Assembly: GCA_003223645.1 (NCBI GenBank)
Contig: QHVT01000023.1
Coordinates: 32,960 to 96,959 of the forward strand
From: Acidobacteriota bacterium
GTDB taxonomy: Bacteria > Acidobacteriota > Thermoanaerobaculia > Gp7-AA8
Direction: 5' to 3'
Length of the DNA stretch: 64,000 bases
Each line of letters opens with the position of its first letter. Position 1 is the first letter of the stretch. The notes below the pieces were generated by a model, which was not told the origin of the DNA, made no database searches, and saw only the letters and a list, made by a program, of their open reading frames with translations. Position numbers and translations under genes: made by a program. Positions 24,432-64,000 of the stretch are shown here, piece after piece.

Positions 24432-24877
24432 TTGATTCGCGAGACAAGCTCGTTGATTCACGAATCAACCAAGGTTGATTCGCGAGACAAGCTCGTTGAT
24501 TCACGAATCAACCAAGGTTGCTTCGCGAGACGAAAATTTTTCCGCGCGAGACAAGAGACCTTGCCTGGCGAGCCAAATTCGCCGCTGATGGCAGGTAAAT
24601 TTTTGCTTCGCGAAGCAAATGTCTTTGACTCGCGAGACAGCAGGACTTGCCTCGCGAATCAAAACTGTTGCCTCGCGAATCAACCATGGTTGCCTCGTAA
24701 GGCAAACTCGTTGTTTCGCGAATCAACCATGGTTATCTCGCGCATCAAACTTCCAGTCTCGCGAGGCGAGCGCGTTGTCTCGGGAATCAACACCCGTTAT
24801 CTCGCGAGTCAACATGCCTTGTCTCGCGAATCAACACCGTTATCTCGCGAATCAACGAGCTGGATTTGCGAATCAAC
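24432..24877. repeat. Array of roughly 21 quasi-palindromic units (~21-bp period, TTGnyTCGCGArnCAA)
   Basis: Recurring TCGCGA core flanked by TTG/CAA; first 43 bp exactly duplicated (24432-24474 = 24475-24517). Confidence 0.9.
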
Positions 24878-25482: not shown

Positions 25483-26250
25483 TCATTCCGGTGTGATGTA
25501 CGCCCCCGTGATTCCGCCGTCGACGAGAAATGACGTGGCATTCACGTAGGACGATTCGTCGCTCGCTAGAAACAGCGCGGCGTTGGCCATCTCTTCCGCG
25601 CGGGCGAAGCGGCCGGGCGGGATGTGGACGAGCCGGCGATTGCGGCGCGCGGGATCGGCGAGCAGCTCCGCGAGGAGCGGTGTTTCGACGGGGCCGGGAC
25701 AGAGCGAATTCGCGCGGATGTTCTGACGCGCGAACTCGACCGCGATCTCTCGCGTCATCGCCAGCACGCCGCCTTTGCTCGCCGTGTACGCGATCTGCGG
25801 AACGGCCGCGCCCATGATGGCGACGAACGACGCCGTGTTGATGATCGATCCGCCGCCGGCGCGCAAGAGAGCGGGAACCTCGTACTTGCATCCGAGGAAC
25901 ACGCCTTTGAGATTGATGTCGATGACGCGATCCCAAACCTCCTCGGAGGTATTCGTCACTGATTCATCCGCCGCATCGAAAATCCCGGCGTTGTTGAACG
26001 CGACGTGCAATGCGCCGAACTGTTCCTCCGCGAACTTCACCATCGCTTCGCAGTCTTTCGCCTTCGACACGTCCGCGGAAAAGGAGCGTGCGTCTCCGCC
26101 GCTCGCGCGAATCTCATCGGCGGTCGCATCCGCGCCTTTCAAATCGACAACGACGACCTTCGCGCCTTCGCGCGCAAACAGAAGACACGATGCTTTTCCG
26201 ATTCCGGAACCGCCGCCGGTGATCAACGCGACCTTATTCGCCAATCTCAT
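25483..26250 (-). CDS. Short-chain dehydrogenase/reductase
   Basis: TGGGSGIG, NNAG, YTASK. Confidence 0.95.
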   Translation of the reverse strand: MRLANKVALITGGGSGIGKASCLLFAREGAKVVVVDLKGADATADEIRASGGDARSFSADVSKAKDCEAMVKFAEEQFGALHVAFNNAGIFDAADESVTNTSEEVWDRVIDINLKGVFLGCKYEVPALLRAGGGSIINTASFVAIMGAAVPQIAYTASKGGVLAMTREIAVEFARQNIRANSLCPGPVETPLLAELLADPARRNRRLVHIPPGRFARAEEMANAALFLASDESSYVNATSFLVDGGITGAYITPE

Positions 26251-57547: not shown

Positions 57548-58091
57548 GCACATCCAGTATCAGGACGACGAGCTGTTCAATCCTGAGACGCATCACGAGG
57601 AATCGGATGTGCCGATCAAGCCGCTCTTCTGGGCGATCGGAATCTTCATCGTCTTCGCGATCGTCACGCATCTCGTCCTCGCGTGGATGTACGAGGGATT
57701 CCGCAAAGGAGAAGAGAAGCGGATGGATCCGCCGTACACGCAGGTCGCCTTGCCGCGTGACGCGTACGTCCCGAAGAACCAGCCCCTGCTCCAGCCGTTC
57801 CCGCGCGAAGGCCACGCGCCGCGCGAAGACACGCCGGTGACCGACCTCGTGCAGATGCGCGCGCGCGAAGAAACGCAGCTGCATTCGTACGGCTGGGTCG
57901 ATCAGCAAAAAGGCGTCGTGCACATCCCGATCGAAAACGCGAAGCAGATCATGCTCCAGCGCGGCTTCCCCACGGCCACCGCACCACCGCCGCCCGCGCC
58001 ACCCAGTGGAGCGGCGCCCGCTTCGGGCGCCGGCCCTCGCGAGAAACCGGCGGCCGAAGCGGCCGCCGCTCCACACGGAGGCGCGCAATGA
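57540..58091 (+). CDS. Single-TM ACIII-associated protein
   Basis: HEESDV, TM, YGWVD..GVVHIPIENAK; between actF and SCO. Confidence 0.8.
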   Translation: MPEHIQYQDDELFNPETHHEESDVPIKPLFWAIGIFIVFAIVTHLVLAWMYEGFRKGEEKRMDPPYTQVALPRDAYVPKNQPLLQPFPREGHAPREDTPVTDLVQMRAREETQLHSYGWVDQQKGVVHIPIENAKQIMLQRGFPTATAPPPPAPPSGAAPASGAGPREKPAAEAAAAPHGGAQ

Positions 58092-59080
58092 TCGCAACGC
58101 TCGCGCTCTTCGCGCTCATCACGTCGGCGACACCGCCCGACCTCCCGGGCCCGGTCTCGATCCAGCAGAAGCTCAACACGCAGATTCCGCTCGATCTGAT
58201 GTTCCGCGACGAGACGGGAAAGATCGTCCGGCTGCGCCAGTACTTCGGCAAGAAGCCGGTCGTGCTCGACTTCGTCTACTACCGCTGCCCGATGCTCTGC
58301 CCGATCGTCCTCGATGGGACGACCGAGGCGCTGACGAATCTGAAATACGACATCGGAAAAGAGTTCGACGTCATCACCGTCAGCATCGATCCGCGCGACA
58401 AAGTCGAAGACGCCGCGCGGATGAAAGAGAAGTACATCAAGCGCTACGGCCGCCTCGACTCCGCGCCCGGCTGGCACTTCCTCACCGCGAACGAGACCCC
58501 GATCAAGCAGCTCGCCGACGCCGTCGGCTTCCAGTTCGCGTATGACGCGAAGATGGACCAGTTCGCGCACGGCGCCGCGCTCTTCGTCCTCACCCCCGAC
58601 GGCCGCACCTCGCGCTACTTCTACGGCTTCGAATACAAGCCGCGCGACTTGCGGCTCGCGATTTTCGAAGCGTCGCAGGGAAAGATCGGCGGCGTCGTCG
58701 AACAGGTCCTCCTGCTCTGCTTTCACTACGACCCGAAAGTCGGCAAGTACAGCCGCGACGCGATGATCTTCGTGCGCGCCGGCGGCGTGACGACGATGCT
58801 GGCGCTGGGTGGATTCATTTTCGTGATGATTCGTAAGGAGCGGATGGCAGATGGCAGACGGCAGATGGCAGAGAAGCGGATGGCAGATGGCAGACGGCAG
58901 ATGGCGGAACAGATGGCAGATGGCAGACGGCAGATGGCGGAAGACGCCACTGCTGACTCTTCGCCATCCGCCATCTGCCATCCGCCATCCAATTCGCCAT
59001 CCGCCATCAGCCATCCGCCATCCGACCCGCCATCCGCCATCCGCCATCTGCCATCCGACCGGGAGGGCGGCCGCCCGTGA
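58088..59080 (+). CDS. SCO1/SenC family copper chaperone with repeat-derived tail
   Basis: CPMLC, SIDPRD, WHFLT, FAH, C-terminal TM. Confidence 0.92.
   Translation: MIATLALFALITSATPPDLPGPVSIQQKLNTQIPLDLMFRDETGKIVRLRQYFGKKPVVLDFVYYRCPMLCPIVLDGTTEALTNLKYDIGKEFDVITVSIDPRDKVEDAARMKEKYIKRYGRLDSAPGWHFLTANETPIKQLADAVGFQFAYDAKMDQFAHGAALFVLTPDGRTSRYFYGFEYKPRDLRLAIFEASQGKIGGVVEQVLLLCFHYDPKVGKYSRDAMIFVRAGGVTTMLALGGFIFVMIRKERMADGRRQMAEKRMADGRRQMAEQMADGRRQMAEDATADSSPSAICHPPSNSPSAISHPPSDPPSAIRHLPSDREGGRP
58841..59057. repeat. Triple-block GATGGCA fold-back read in frame in SCO
   Basis: 3 left and 3 right blocks; no stop until 59078-59080. Confidence 0.92.
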
Positions 59081-60041
59081 TGCTCTCCGATTTCCCGCTG
59101 TTCCCGGAGGCGGCGTCGAGCGTCGCAAAGTACGTCGACGGCCTGTACCTCGCGCTGATCCTGCTCACCGGCACGGTGTCGCTGCTGATCTGGGCGGCGA
59201 TCTTCTACCTCGCCATCAAGTACCGCCGCCGCCCCGATAACGAGCTCGCGCAGGAGCAGGAGCCGCCGGCCGCGCTGGAGATGACCTGGATCGTCGTCCC
59301 GACCATCATCTTCCTGGCCATCTTCGTCGCCGGCGCGTGGGTCTACTTCCGCATCCAGCGCGTCCCGACGAACGCTCTCGAAGTGTATGCCACGGGCAGA
59401 CAGTGGATGTGGAAGTTCCAGCATACGACCGGACAGCGCGAGATCAACACGCTTCACGTTCCGGTCAACCGTCCCGTGAAGATCACGATGGCGTCGGAAG
59501 ACGTCATTCACAGCTTGTGGTTCCCCGCATTCCGCGTGAAGAACGACGTCCTGCCGAATCGCTACCGCACGTTGTGGTTCCAGGCCACGAAGACCGGCCG
59601 CTTCCACATCTTCTGCGCCGAATACTGCGGCACGCTGCACAGCGGGATGATCGGCTGGGTCGAAGTGATGGAGCCGACCGAATATCAGAAGTGGCTCGCC
59701 GGCGGCAGCGAAGGATCGCTGGCCACGCAGGGCGAACAGCTCTTCCAGAAGCTCGCGTGCGCCACGTGCCACACCAATGACGCCACCGGCCGCGGCCCGG
59801 TGCTCGCCGGCATCGTTGGCAAGCAGGTCCCGCTCGCCGACGGGCACAGCGTCATCGCCGACGACAACTATCTGCGCGAGTCGATTCTCAACCCGACCGC
59901 GAAAGTCGCCGCCGGCTTCCAGCCGATCATGCCGGCCTTCCAGGGACAGGTCAGCGAAGAAGACCTGATCCGCCTCATCGCCTTCGTGAAGACGATGCAG
60001 CCCGCTACGAACGTAGCACCACCGCAGCAGCCGAGGAATCC

Positions 60042-60045
<4 letters not shown>
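59077..60045 (+). CDS. coxB: Cytochrome c oxidase subunit II with fused cytochrome c (caa3)
   Basis: [17 protein letters not shown] (CuA), CATCH. Confidence 0.96.
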
Positions 60046-61695
<1,650 letters not shown>

Positions 61696-61703
<8 letters not shown>

Positions 61704-62397
61704 TCCCACGCTGCATGACTTGCAGCATCCGGGCTCGGAAGAGGCGCACGTGCCTCACCACCCGTTTCTGCAGCATCACTTCGAGGACCTCGGCCAGCAG
61801 CACGAAGCGTCGACGCTGGGGATGTGGTTCTTCGTCGCGCAGGAGATCCTCTTCTTCGGCGGCATCTTCGCCGCGTACACGGTCTACCGTGTCATGTATC
61901 CGGCCGCATGGAGCGCGGGCGCGCATCATCAGAACTGGCGCATCGGTTTCGCCAACACCATCGTCCTGATTGCGAGCTCGCTCACGATGGCGCTGGCCGT
62001 GTGGGGCGCGCAGGGAGCGAAGCGGAAGTTCACGACGCTGATGCTCGTCCTGACGCTGTTCCTCGGCATGACCTTCATCGGCGTCAAAGCGTTCGAATAC
62101 CGCGAGCACATTCACGAGGGACTCTTCCCCGGATCGGCGTTCACGTACGTCGATCACGAACACCCCGAGCTCACCCGCGGCGTCGAGCTGTTCATGCTCT
62201 TCTACTTCATCATGACCGGCCTGCACGCGCTGCACATGATCATCGGCGCCGGCCTGCTCATCTGGTTCATCCGCCGTTCCTGGAGAGGCGACTTCGGCGA
62301 GGAGTACTACAGCCCGGTCGAGATCATGGGCCTGTACTGGCACTTCGTCGACATCGTCTGGATCTTCCTCTTCCCGCTCTTGTACCTGATTCACTGA
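61696..62397 (+). CDS. coxC: Cytochrome c oxidase subunit III
   Basis: [17 protein letters not shown]. Confidence 0.95.
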
Positions 62398-62405
62398 GGA
62401 CCCGA

Positions 62406-62738
62406 ATGGCACACGCACCCGACCACGCAGACCACGTCGGCCACGGCCCGGCCCACCACCGCGCCCCGATCGGCATGTACCTCGCCGTCTTCGTCGCGCT
62501 GATGGTGTTCACCGTGCTGACCGTCGCCGCCTCCCGCGTGAACCTCCACCAGTGGAACACTCCGATCGCCCTCGCCATCGCCGTCATCAAAGCCACCCTG
62601 GTCATCCTCTGGTTCATGCACGTCATCCACTCCCCGCGCATGACCTGGATCGTGGTGATCAGCTCGTTCCTCTGGTTGGGCGTCCTGTTCGTCCTGACCT
62701 TCAGCGACTACCTGACCCGCGGCTGGCCCATCTACTAG
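62406..62738 (+). CDS. coxD: Cytochrome c oxidase subunit IV
   Basis: ATG after GAGG; 3 TM, IKATLVILWFMH. Confidence 0.9.
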   Translation: MAHAPDHADHVGHGPAHHRAPIGMYLAVFVALMVFTVLTVAASRVNLHQWNTPIALAIAVIKATLVILWFMHVIHSPRMTWIVVISSFLWLGVLFVLTFSDYLTRGWPIY

Positions 62739-62755
62739 CGGGACGTCAACGCTGG

Positions 62756-62865
62756 TGTGGTGACCGCGCTGGCTTGTGGCGACCGCTGCCGTGTGGTGAC
62801 CGCTGCCTTGTGGTGACCGCTGCCCTCAGCGGTCACAGCGCCGCCCGCCTCTTGGCGGCGCCACA
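62756..62865. repeat. Four tandem TGTGGTGACCGC units ending in a REP-like hairpin
   Basis: ~17-21 nt period, closing CCACA. Confidence 0.75.
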
Positions 62866-62900
62866 TCGTGAACGATCTTGAAGCACTACAGGACCCCTTT

Positions 62901-63246
62901 CGCGATGTCGTCGTTGACTTCCCGGATGTCAATTTGACATCGGCGCTTTCATCGTCCTTTCGGCGAAGTCAATTTGACATCGGCGAATTCATCGATCCTT
63001 TCCGCGATGTCAATTTGACATCGGCGCTTTCATCGATCCTTTCGGCGATGTCAATTTGACATCGGCGCTTTCATCGATCCTTTCCGCGATGTCAATTTGA
63101 CATCGGCGCTTTCATCGATCCTTTCCGCGATGTCAATTTGACATCGGCGAATTCATCGATCCTTTCGGCGAAGTCATTTTGACTTCCGCGAGGTCATCAT
63201 GCTTTGGGCGATGTCCACGTTGACTCCCGGCGAAGGATCAACGATC
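62901..63246. repeat. Tandem array: 7 x ~41-bp units built on palindrome GATGTCAA-T-TTGACATC, degenerate ~21-bp flanks
   Basis: Unit starts 62925, 62965, 63006, 63047, 63088, 63129, 63170 (last degenerate). Confidence 0.95.
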
Positions 63247-63321
63247 GGAAGGAACATAACTTCCACACACATTTATGTGTCCACGTACTTCATTCCCTAC
63301 ATCCCATCACTCTGGAATCCC

Positions 63322-63374
63322 GTCATTCTGAGCGTAGCGAAGAATCTCAAGTTGCGTGTTTTGAGATCTTTGAC
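63322..63374. repeat. Partial GTCATTCTGAGCG..CGAAGAATCT palindromic element
   Basis: Left arm resembles 9151 family; right arm degenerate. Confidence 0.6.
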
Positions 63375-63450
63375 AGCCTTTTTTCGGCTTGAAATCGAAG
63401 TGAAATGCCAGGCTTGCATCGTGCCAATCAAATGTGTCATACTGTCGAGG

Positions 63451-64000
63451 ATGGTACGATCGAACCACGTTTCGGCGCCGAAGAGCGCCACCGGCAAATG
63501 CCGGGACCGCCGCCACCCCTGGGGCCGGCGGCGGCTGGCGTGGGTGCGCTCGTTCCGGCGCGCGCAGCGCGAGCTTGATGCCTGTGTCGCGCTGATCGAT
63601 TCGTCTCTGCGCACGGCCGCTGCCTCGGAGCACTCCGTCCACGGGCGGCCGATCCGCACCTCCCGCGACTTGCATCAAGCTACGAGCCAGCTGGCCGATG
63701 CCTCCGGCCGGCTTGGGCGCGCCGCGAGCGCGCTCGCCAGGACGAACGAGTACATGGCCCGCGAGCCGGAGCGCGCAGTGGGGGCGCCGGCACTCATCAT
63801 CAGCGAAACCGAGCGCTGGGTCGACGTCGCCGCCTACCTCCAGGAAGCGGCCGGCGGCGTCTTCGCCCTCCAGGAGAACGTGCTCGGCGCCCTCGAGTCG
63901 GGAGAGCTCGTCCCGGAGCCGGAACCCGAGCGCCGTCCGCGCATCGTCCTCGTCCCGCGTCCCGCACCCGTCCGCGCGTTCCTGCGCCTCCGGCTGCCGC
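63451..64000 (+). CDS. Hypothetical helical protein, 3'-truncated (not in ORF track)
   Basis: Open frame from ATG 63451 to window end (MVRSNHVSAPKS..RPRIVLVPRPAPVRAFLRLRLP); TTGCAT-18-CATACT upstream. Confidence 0.65.
   Translation, partial: MVRSNHVSAPKSATGKCRDRRHPWGRRRLAWVRSFRRAQRELDACVALIDSSLRTAAASEHSVHGRPIRTSRDLHQATSQLADASGRLGRAASALARTNEYMAREPERAVGAPALIISETERWVDVAAYLQEAAGGVFALQENVLGALESGELVPEPEPERRPRIVLVPRPAPVRAFLRLRLP

Follow-up and report, generated by a model that had tools for sequence, protein, structure and literature searches.

A 21-bp-phased tandem array at the 5' end of a conserved, lineage-specific gene module in soil Thermoanaerobaculia

We analysed a 64,000-nucleotide stretch of DNA (the window) from an acidobacterial genome of the class Thermoanaerobaculia; it is contig C40:32960-96959 of a 51-contig, 6.38-Mb genome, whose other contigs are likewise given by C numbers. 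Near the right end of the window, a tandem array with a 41-bp period fills the gap between the stop codon of a cytochrome c oxidase subunit gene (62738) and the ATG of a gene that we call A (63451). A second gene, B, follows A beyond the window end. This array and its relation to A and B are the subject here. The parts of the locus, in window numbering, are:

62475..62738, plus strand: cox IV gene (COX4_pro, subunit IV; PF03626, E 1.1e-12), last gene of the cytochrome c oxidase operon
62892..62920, no strand: left flank of the array, degenerate ~21-mers, with a decayed repeat copy at 62892-62909 (in-register reading)
62921..63165, no strand: homogeneous core of the array, six 40/41-bp units (Tandem Repeats Finder (TRF), repeat search and in-register reading)
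63166..63246, no strand: right flank of the array, about four decayed ~21-mers (by-eye reading)
63451..64000, plus strand: gene A (225 aa), running past the window end to 64128; coding by third-codon-position excess
64171-64794, beyond the window end: gene B (207 aa), from its open reading frame (ORF) and family profile

TRF reported a single array at 62918-63215 (period 41, 7.3 copies, 90% matches, score 442), and a repeat search found six in-register copies at 41-bp spacing. The first-pass annotation, made from the letters alone, had described seven 41-bp units, one of them of 40; the tandem array stands, and the in-register count is six homogeneous units, starting at 62921 (40 nt) and at 62961, 63002, 63043, 63084 and 63125 (41 nt each), between degenerate flanks. 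Its other structural statements were borne out as well: each unit consists of a 20-mer and a 21-mer, both beginning GCG, degenerate ~21-mers flank the core, and a palindrome places TTGACA on both strands, which we find in 5-6 units. The first sub-unit is palindromic over 19 bp, a central T separating two 9-bp arms (9+1+9), while the second carries a small ATCGAT dyad, and dyad centres thus fall every 20.5 bp. A genome search for the palindrome, which had been proposed as a check, found the 17-mer core GATGTCAA-T-TTGACATC exactly 5 times, all inside this array; the reversed 17-mer pattern had no match anywhere in the 6.38-Mb genome, even with 2 mismatches allowed. Folded as single-stranded DNA, a unit forms an 8-bp stem (-8.7 kcal/mol, z -3.2). 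A CRISPR (clustered regularly interspaced short palindromic repeats) array was considered and rejected, since both sub-units recur and no unique spacer separates them.

Searching with the DNA downstream of the array by blastn, we found paralogues of A and B directly behind other arrays of quite different units. An iterated profile search of this genome gave 31 B-type ORF rows, which we read as 29 copies or fragments, and 4 A-type genes. An array lies within 1300 bp upstream of B in 22/29 cases and downstream in 1/29. For 4045 crude control genes of the same genome the values are 3.3% upstream and 4.1% downstream, an upstream enrichment at B of ~23-fold over control genes. The association recurs elsewhere: in five related genomes an array is upstream of B in 16/21 loci and downstream in 0/23 (loci with at least 1 kb of flank), and at loci from public Thermoanaerobaculia metagenome-assembled genomes (MAGs) it is upstream in 34/39 and downstream in 3/47. 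The public set comprises 50 of 52 loci, with two 32-residue partial matches (L108 and L109) left out, and its upstream count needs at least 1300 bp of sequence. In 43/50 public loci an A homologue lies between array and B. The proposal that homologues of the gene at 63451 sit beside ~21/41-bp arrays, as a module of repeat array plus protein, was thus upheld.

B was found in 6/61 genomes of the class, belonging to three genera of one family, with 8-47 matches each; in one genome, 47 B matches are spread over a single 6.6-Mb chromosome. The named relatives are all Thermoanaerobaculia from soil metagenomes. Even B paralogues only 20-34% identical have arrays. The 40 listed A/B-linked units are all built of 20-22-bp sub-units, with periods of 21, 22, 41-44, 60-66, 85/86, 106 and 129. 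Unit sequence changes at almost every locus; the ~21-bp phase and the upstream place are constant. B loci for which TRF gave no array still have degenerate repeated motifs upstream, as judged by eye. We conclude that a conserved, lineage-specific module, consisting of array, sigma-70-type promoter, optional A, and B, has the array as its 5' cis element. The module is old and polar, with a fixed geometry and tens of copies per genome, and at least a subset of the array class is gene-linked. The array had also been called recently amplified, a description that the data do not support: the array slot is common to paralogues 20-30% identical and is therefore old, although the units are homogenised.

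The geometry extends to a promoter. Between array end and the start of the A profile the distance has a median of 156 nt (33 loci) and is 133-205 nt in 22/33. Within the 111 nt that precede the A profile, exact TTGACA occurs at 15/33 loci, compared with a mean of 0.77 and a maximum of 3 in 500 shuffles, and in 12 of those 15 loci it sits at -73 to -79. The pattern TTGAC[AC]-N16-18-nAnnnT is present in 13 loci, with the start codon close behind. The corresponding feature at the present locus is:

63414..63443, plus strand: inferred gene A promoter, with -35-like TTGCAT at 63414-63419, an 18-nt spacer and -10-like CATACT at 63438-63443

Here TTGCAT is at -73 and the ATG of gene A comes 7 nt after CATACT. 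A strict consensus promoter and terminator scan of 62600-63600 returned 0 sites and did not list TTGCAT/CATACT; we infer this pair to be the gene A promoter from positional homology only. Because the start codon follows so closely behind the -10 element, the gene A mRNA may be leaderless. In modules with B only, TTGACA-N17-TAnnnT is seen by eye 10-80 bp past the array end. From these patterns, the arrays adjoin a conserved promoter on its upstream side and do not contain it, and the TTGACA words of the present unit belong to its palindrome and are not promoters.

The array at this locus ends ~205 bp before gene A, or ~120 bp before it if an inserted palindrome is discounted:

63319..63395, no strand: dispersed palindromic element of the repetitive extragenic palindromic (REP) type, with blastn copies at C4 and C41 (85% identity)

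This element (~85 bp) accounts for the extra distance between array and promoter here and is outside the conserved module. The same element also adjoins arrays or modules at C44 (104.6 kb), C29, C46, C7 (100-160) and C41 (107.6 kb). At C29 and C46, its remnant marks deletions of A and the 5' part of B.

Two further observations concern the region between array and B. The B-only modules at C7, C10 (a minus-strand copy), C36 and C21:647 kb have, by eye, a common GTAACAG(A/C) box, placed ~40-60 bp upstream of a TTGACT-N17-CA(T/C)ATT promoter. In two other modules (C41:107.3-108.4 kb and C48:4.5-5.7 kb) a small pair of genes on the opposite strand lies between the array and the B promoter; one gene of the pair resembles, by eye, an XRE-type helix-turn-helix protein.

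On its left side the module abuts the cytochrome c oxidase operon, where SCO1, COX2, COX1 and COX3 genes precede the COX4_pro gene. The cox IV orthologues of four related genomes are immediately followed by a convergent gene, and there is no A or B match there. The same four cox loci have no array, except that one genome has a 2.3-copy 21-bp repeat 1.4 kb off. It follows that array, A, B and the following DNA were either inserted here or lost everywhere else, and the cox IV gene is the upstream border of the inserted module. From gene B to the contig end (C40 98.0-100.4 kb) the G+C content is lower than in the cox operon (0.51-0.58 vs ~0.64), which is consistent with acquired DNA; this low-G+C stretch holds two ORFs, of 286 and 263 aa, without a family match.

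That gene A is coding is indicated by the differences among its paralogues, which amount to 0.45 at third codon positions vs 0.28 and 0.32 at the others; gaps are confined to single 1-nt ones in the C51 and C8 copies. The A model has a predicted local distance difference test (pLDDT) value of 79 and shows a bundle of three helices and, after it, an Arg-rich tail that is poorly predicted and in the family alignment ends in an invariant GRAPP[LF] motif. The codons of this motif are pyrimidine-rich and seem, by eye, to be complementary to the gene B Shine-Dalgarno region ~60 nt downstream. The GRAPP[LF] region may form a hairpin for translational coupling, or encode a conserved peptide motif that has a partner.

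B has a conserved 140-residue domain of five helices, one of them 54 residues long, modelled at pLDDT 90.5. The domain ends in a conserved basic stretch, after which come variable low-complexity tails rich in Pro, Ala and Lys; A and B thus both have conserved basic segments. In a complex test the B homodimer scored 0.66, where the best of 3 controls scored 0.00. In the benchmark of this score, 0.66 was attained by 20/30 same-chain-pair structures and by 1/23 single-chain structures. Homodimer runs had at least 92% of contacts in common and a partner pLDDT of at least 79, with the long helices antiparallel around residue 83. These models support B as a predicted symmetric homodimer, a two-fold particle.

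The B family is large, with at least 1350 clusters at 50% identity (E<=0.001), and its named members are all 'hypothetical'. Searches of Pfam, NCBIfam, PHROGs and PADLOC with A and B gave nothing below E 0.04, and the Pfam, NCBIfam and PHROG rows at E<=1 were at chance level; a PDB profile search with the B alignment had a best E of 0.067, and Foldseek on the PDB gave no match for B at E<=0.001. In the wide VIA-align search, B reached at best Z 5.6 over 62 residues and A reached Z 12.7 on spectrin-type three-helix bundles, scores within the range common for helical proteins. The ESM Atlas returned only unnamed clusters. Full-text literature searches, limited to the articles themselves, turned up no account of such arrays or of the A/B family. 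In the four public runs the contigs were short and broke off at the array, and they carry no copy-number information. In the RNA run among them, X18, contigs were absent from the array and from most of gene A; two 151-nt contigs, differing at 1-2 positions, fell on gene B, and because the library may contain DNA they hint only weakly at expression of B.

The array belongs to a much wider class. Genome-wide, TRF rows with a score of at least 80 numbered 124 at period 21, 35 at period 42, 32 at period 43 and 23 at period 63. Merged, these and their like make 146 arrays with a period that is a multiple of ~21 bp, 36.8 kb in total or ~23 per Mb, and they fall into 91 unit families. The B-containing relative G055 also has many, 11 per 400 kb, whereas G031 and G025, in which B was not found, have 2 per 400 kb and 1 per 200 kb, respectively. 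The idea that each array family has its own B was dropped, as a B-linked member occurs in 12 of the 24 multi-array families, near the chance estimate of ~10.

The unit family of the present array has six arrays on six contigs, the other five being:

C29:2062 and C46:81483, each with a truncated and frame-shifted B behind it
C41:250879, on the upstream side of a GntR-ABC operon
C44:104877, between convergent genes
C21:496013

When five arrays of this family were aligned by eye, the first part of the right flank, TTGACTTCCGCGAG, was common to 4/5, and there was no common left end.

Within the window a second array, at 24432-24856, has a 43-bp period made of 21+22-bp sub-units with palindromes, and lies between a 261-aa ORF and a duplicate of the 3' part of that ORF. 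The first-pass annotation had paired it with the present array; the likeness in design holds, and no A or B gene adjoins it. A 255-266-aa ORF near the 24432 array (25483-26250, minus strand) has paralogues less than 1 kb from arrays on C25 and C4.

Dyad symmetry is a recurrent property of the units. A perfect stem of at least 6 bp is found in 53% of 36 B-linked MAG arrays (shuffled units, 10%) and in 30% of this genome's 146 arrays (shuffled units, 7%); the present unit has 9 bp. ATCGAT occurs in 12/36 MAG units, a 13-fold excess. In the paralogous C8 and C51 arrays, both dyad arms differ together, GTCA..TGAC having become CTCG..CGAG.

The reading that we tentatively favour, and to which we give a little less than an even chance, is that the array is a helically phased docking track for a DNA-binding protein, controlling the module promoter; the binding is a prediction. 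The array would act as double-stranded DNA with many docking sites. With dyads two helical turns apart, all sites would face one side of the helix, and a dimeric protein could bind them cooperatively. The reader would most likely be the module's own B, together with A where A is present. Its binding would set the activity of the promoter ~75 bp downstream, probably as autoregulation, and orphan arrays belonging to this unit family would offer the same protein additional sites. The kind of system that the data suggest is a protein gene with its own phased site array.

Several observations weigh against the docking track. B-linked arrays are only 23/146 of the phased arrays of this genome, and the B-linked share of multi-array families is close to chance. 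In the present unit family, 3/6 arrays have neither A nor B beside them and two more have only a truncated B. By crude gene calls from ORFs filtered on third-position G+C, arrays occupy 56 tandem, 33 convergent and 15 divergent gaps, so that promoter-bearing gaps are not enriched. The co-distribution of arrays and B comes from four genomes only and is phylogenetically confounded. A and B have no match among known DNA-binding families or folds, and their models are all-helical, with no ribbon strand. Finally, arrays diverge faster than the adjoining genes: the C8 and C51 units agree at 33/43 positions, while by codon position the A regions of these two loci differ at 4-11% of sites and the B regions at 5-21%, and the C21 array is far more different again. 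Any shift of specificity would therefore have to come about through only a few residue changes.

Among known systems, the closest in design are the centromere/operator arrays of plasmids, although the arrays here are chromosomal and highly multi-copy and come with no partition NTPase. The type II parC-ParR systems of R1 and pSK41 are such plasmid arrays with their own adaptor protein. In the type Ib system of pCXC100, ParB dimers bind cooperatively to nine repeats of 9 bp each (PMC3074162). The likeness lies in head-to-tail repeats immediately upstream of the operon encoding the would-be binder, an arrangement that we find here, and also in phased sites, expected cooperative binding, an array that would double as operator, and a system-specific sequence. 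The differences are several. There is no ParM, ParA or TubZ, as A, B and the two downstream ORFs have no NTPase family match. The A and B models contain helices only (DSSP) and no ribbon-helix-helix strand, and their fold matches are generic helical ones. The present array is chromosomal, next to the cox operon in a contig of 100 kb, and the module has 8-47 copies per genome. Its sub-units are 20.5-21.5 bp and often dyad-symmetric, as opposed to direct repeats of 9-11 bp.

Iteron arrays of theta plasmids offer a second comparison. These are direct repeats of ~17-22 bp at about two-turn spacing, beside an autoregulating rep gene, and they resemble the present arrangement in having two-helical-turn direct repeats next to the gene of a putative binder. 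They differ in that A and B have no Rep-family match in Pfam, NCBIfam or PHROG, and in the dozens of chromosomal copies here.

The main rival to the docking track is a selfish or neutral intergenic repeat that carries a minisatellite and has no role for its neighbours, B genes merely sharing fast-changing accessory regions with arrays. We consider this unlikely, while giving it more weight than any other alternative. Pneumococcal BOX and mycobacterial MIRU are comparable tandem intergenic repeats. A precedent in Porphyromonas gingivalis is BrickBuilt, a combined minisatellite and miniature inverted-repeat transposable element, which has 23-nt tandem units with leader and tail in 19 intergenic copies (PMC4596501). 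Like these elements, which can influence promoters, the present class has spacer-less tandem units of ~20-45 bp in many copies, always intergenic and within one lineage, and it may influence promoters too. The same reading is favoured by the occurrence of one unit family at 6 unrelated loci, including a site upstream of GntR-ABC and a convergent gap, and by the 146 phased arrays of 91 families, most of them without B and in all gap types. It also gains from the right-end motif common to 4/5 arrays, from the insertion of this locus relative to four related genomes, and from arrays evolving faster than adjoining genes.

What a neutral repeat does not account for is the strict polarity (34/39 upstream vs 3/47 downstream in the public loci, 16/21 vs 0/23 in the relatives), the fixed distance to the promoter, the ~23-fold enrichment over control genes, and an association kept across paralogues ~20-30% identical. 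Nor did inspection by eye show terminal inverted repeats or target duplications around this array. The arrays further differ from BOX, BrickBuilt and MIRU in that unit sequence varies by locus while the ~21-bp phase is kept. A gene family follows the array here, with strict polarity and fixed spacing; BrickBuilt is not known to have a linked gene family.

Distinctly unlikely, in our view, is a docking array read in trans by some other factor, such as LytTR-type response regulators or a nucleoid-associated protein. LytTR-type sites consist of 9-bp repeats 12 bp apart, that is, of a 21-bp period, and those of the AgrA, ComE and AlgR type lie upstream of the promoters that they control. The period of the arrays matches, and most arrays have no B beside them. 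LytTR genes are also numerous (9, 13 and 8) in the array-rich, B-positive G000 (this genome), G059 and G055, and few (2 and 0) in the array-poor, B-negative G031 and G025. Position speaks otherwise: the LytTR gene nearest to the present array is on another contig, and 1/9 in the genome adjoins any array (C7:49961, 99 bp from one with a 33/66-bp period), the other eight being 7-18 kb from the nearest. The sites differ too, since LytTR sites are pairs of direct 9-mers whereas the units here are inverted and form long dyad arrays, and 91 unit families cannot each have one of 9 regulators.

More doubtful again is a contingency-type spacer, in which slippage in unit number would tune or switch A/B expression with no dedicated binder. 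Such a role would suit units that are homogenised and turn over fast, an array directly upstream of a promoter, and a large protein family with variable, low-complexity tails; it has no need of dyad symmetry or of a strict ~21-bp phase.

We regard it as slightly less probable still that the array is transcribed and acts as RNA, as a string of hairpins bound by the Arg-rich A or as a decoy. Each unit can form an 8-bp hairpin, two units together fold at -22.9 kcal/mol (z -6.0), and A has arginine-rich segments. Rfam gave no credible family for 58000-64000 or for 20 module loci, only sub-threshold miRNA-type rows on repeats, so the earlier suggestion of a repeat non-coding RNA is not supported. 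Moreover, the conserved promoter is on the downstream side of the array, facing away from it, dyads are weak or absent in many arrays of the class, and B-only modules lack A altogether. The last suggestion, a sponge for RNA polymerase or sigma factor or a bidirectional promoter array built of TTGACA -35 hexamers, is very improbable and finds no support, because the TTGACA words on both strands in 5-6 units have no suitably spaced -10 partner (a sigma-70-like hexamer pair scan of 62600-63600 found 0 sites, with 0.4 expected) and sister arrays of the module class have no TTGACA.

Apart from these rivals, a new kind of self-propagating chromosomal element could be at work, with A and B as its trans-acting proteins, although we rate this as a long shot. 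B-linked arrays would then be the 'autonomous' copies and the more than 100 orphan arrays of the same unit families non-autonomous ones, and the cognate B dimer would recognise orphan arrays and help to spread, amplify or maintain them. If true, such self-propagation would explain why phased arrays abound only in B-carrying genomes.

Should the docking track be correct, soil Thermoanaerobaculia would carry, per chromosome, tens of private pairs of protein and docking array, centromere-like and without a segregation motor. The ~37 kb of 21-bp-phased minisatellite DNA in this genome would be explained, and the unannotated B clusters (at least 1350 at 50% identity) would represent a large untouched reservoir of orthogonal DNA-binding specificities. 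One small protein with one array would make a testable system for how tandem site arrays originate and become uniform, and how they co-evolve with the proteins that read them. In annotation, such arrays should not be taken for CRISPRs, coding repeats or plain variable-number tandem repeats.

Other repeats in this part of the window are separate from the array. Directly after the cox IV stop there is a small element apart from the 41-bp repeats:

62755..62838, no strand: four 17-bp direct repeats ending in a hairpin with a 9-10-bp stem (TRF period 17, 4.0 copies; fold prediction)

Arrays of 15 bp related to this 17-bp repeat are found elsewhere in the genome, with 6-10 perfect copies at C5:181894 and C44:39273. 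Further upstream, at 58839-59060, inverted heptamer repeats (GATGGCA-type, then the complement) run from the 3' end of the SCO1-like gene into the start of COX2. These heptamer runs translate as MADGRRQ-type repeats, and hairpins of this class occur ~10 times in the window.

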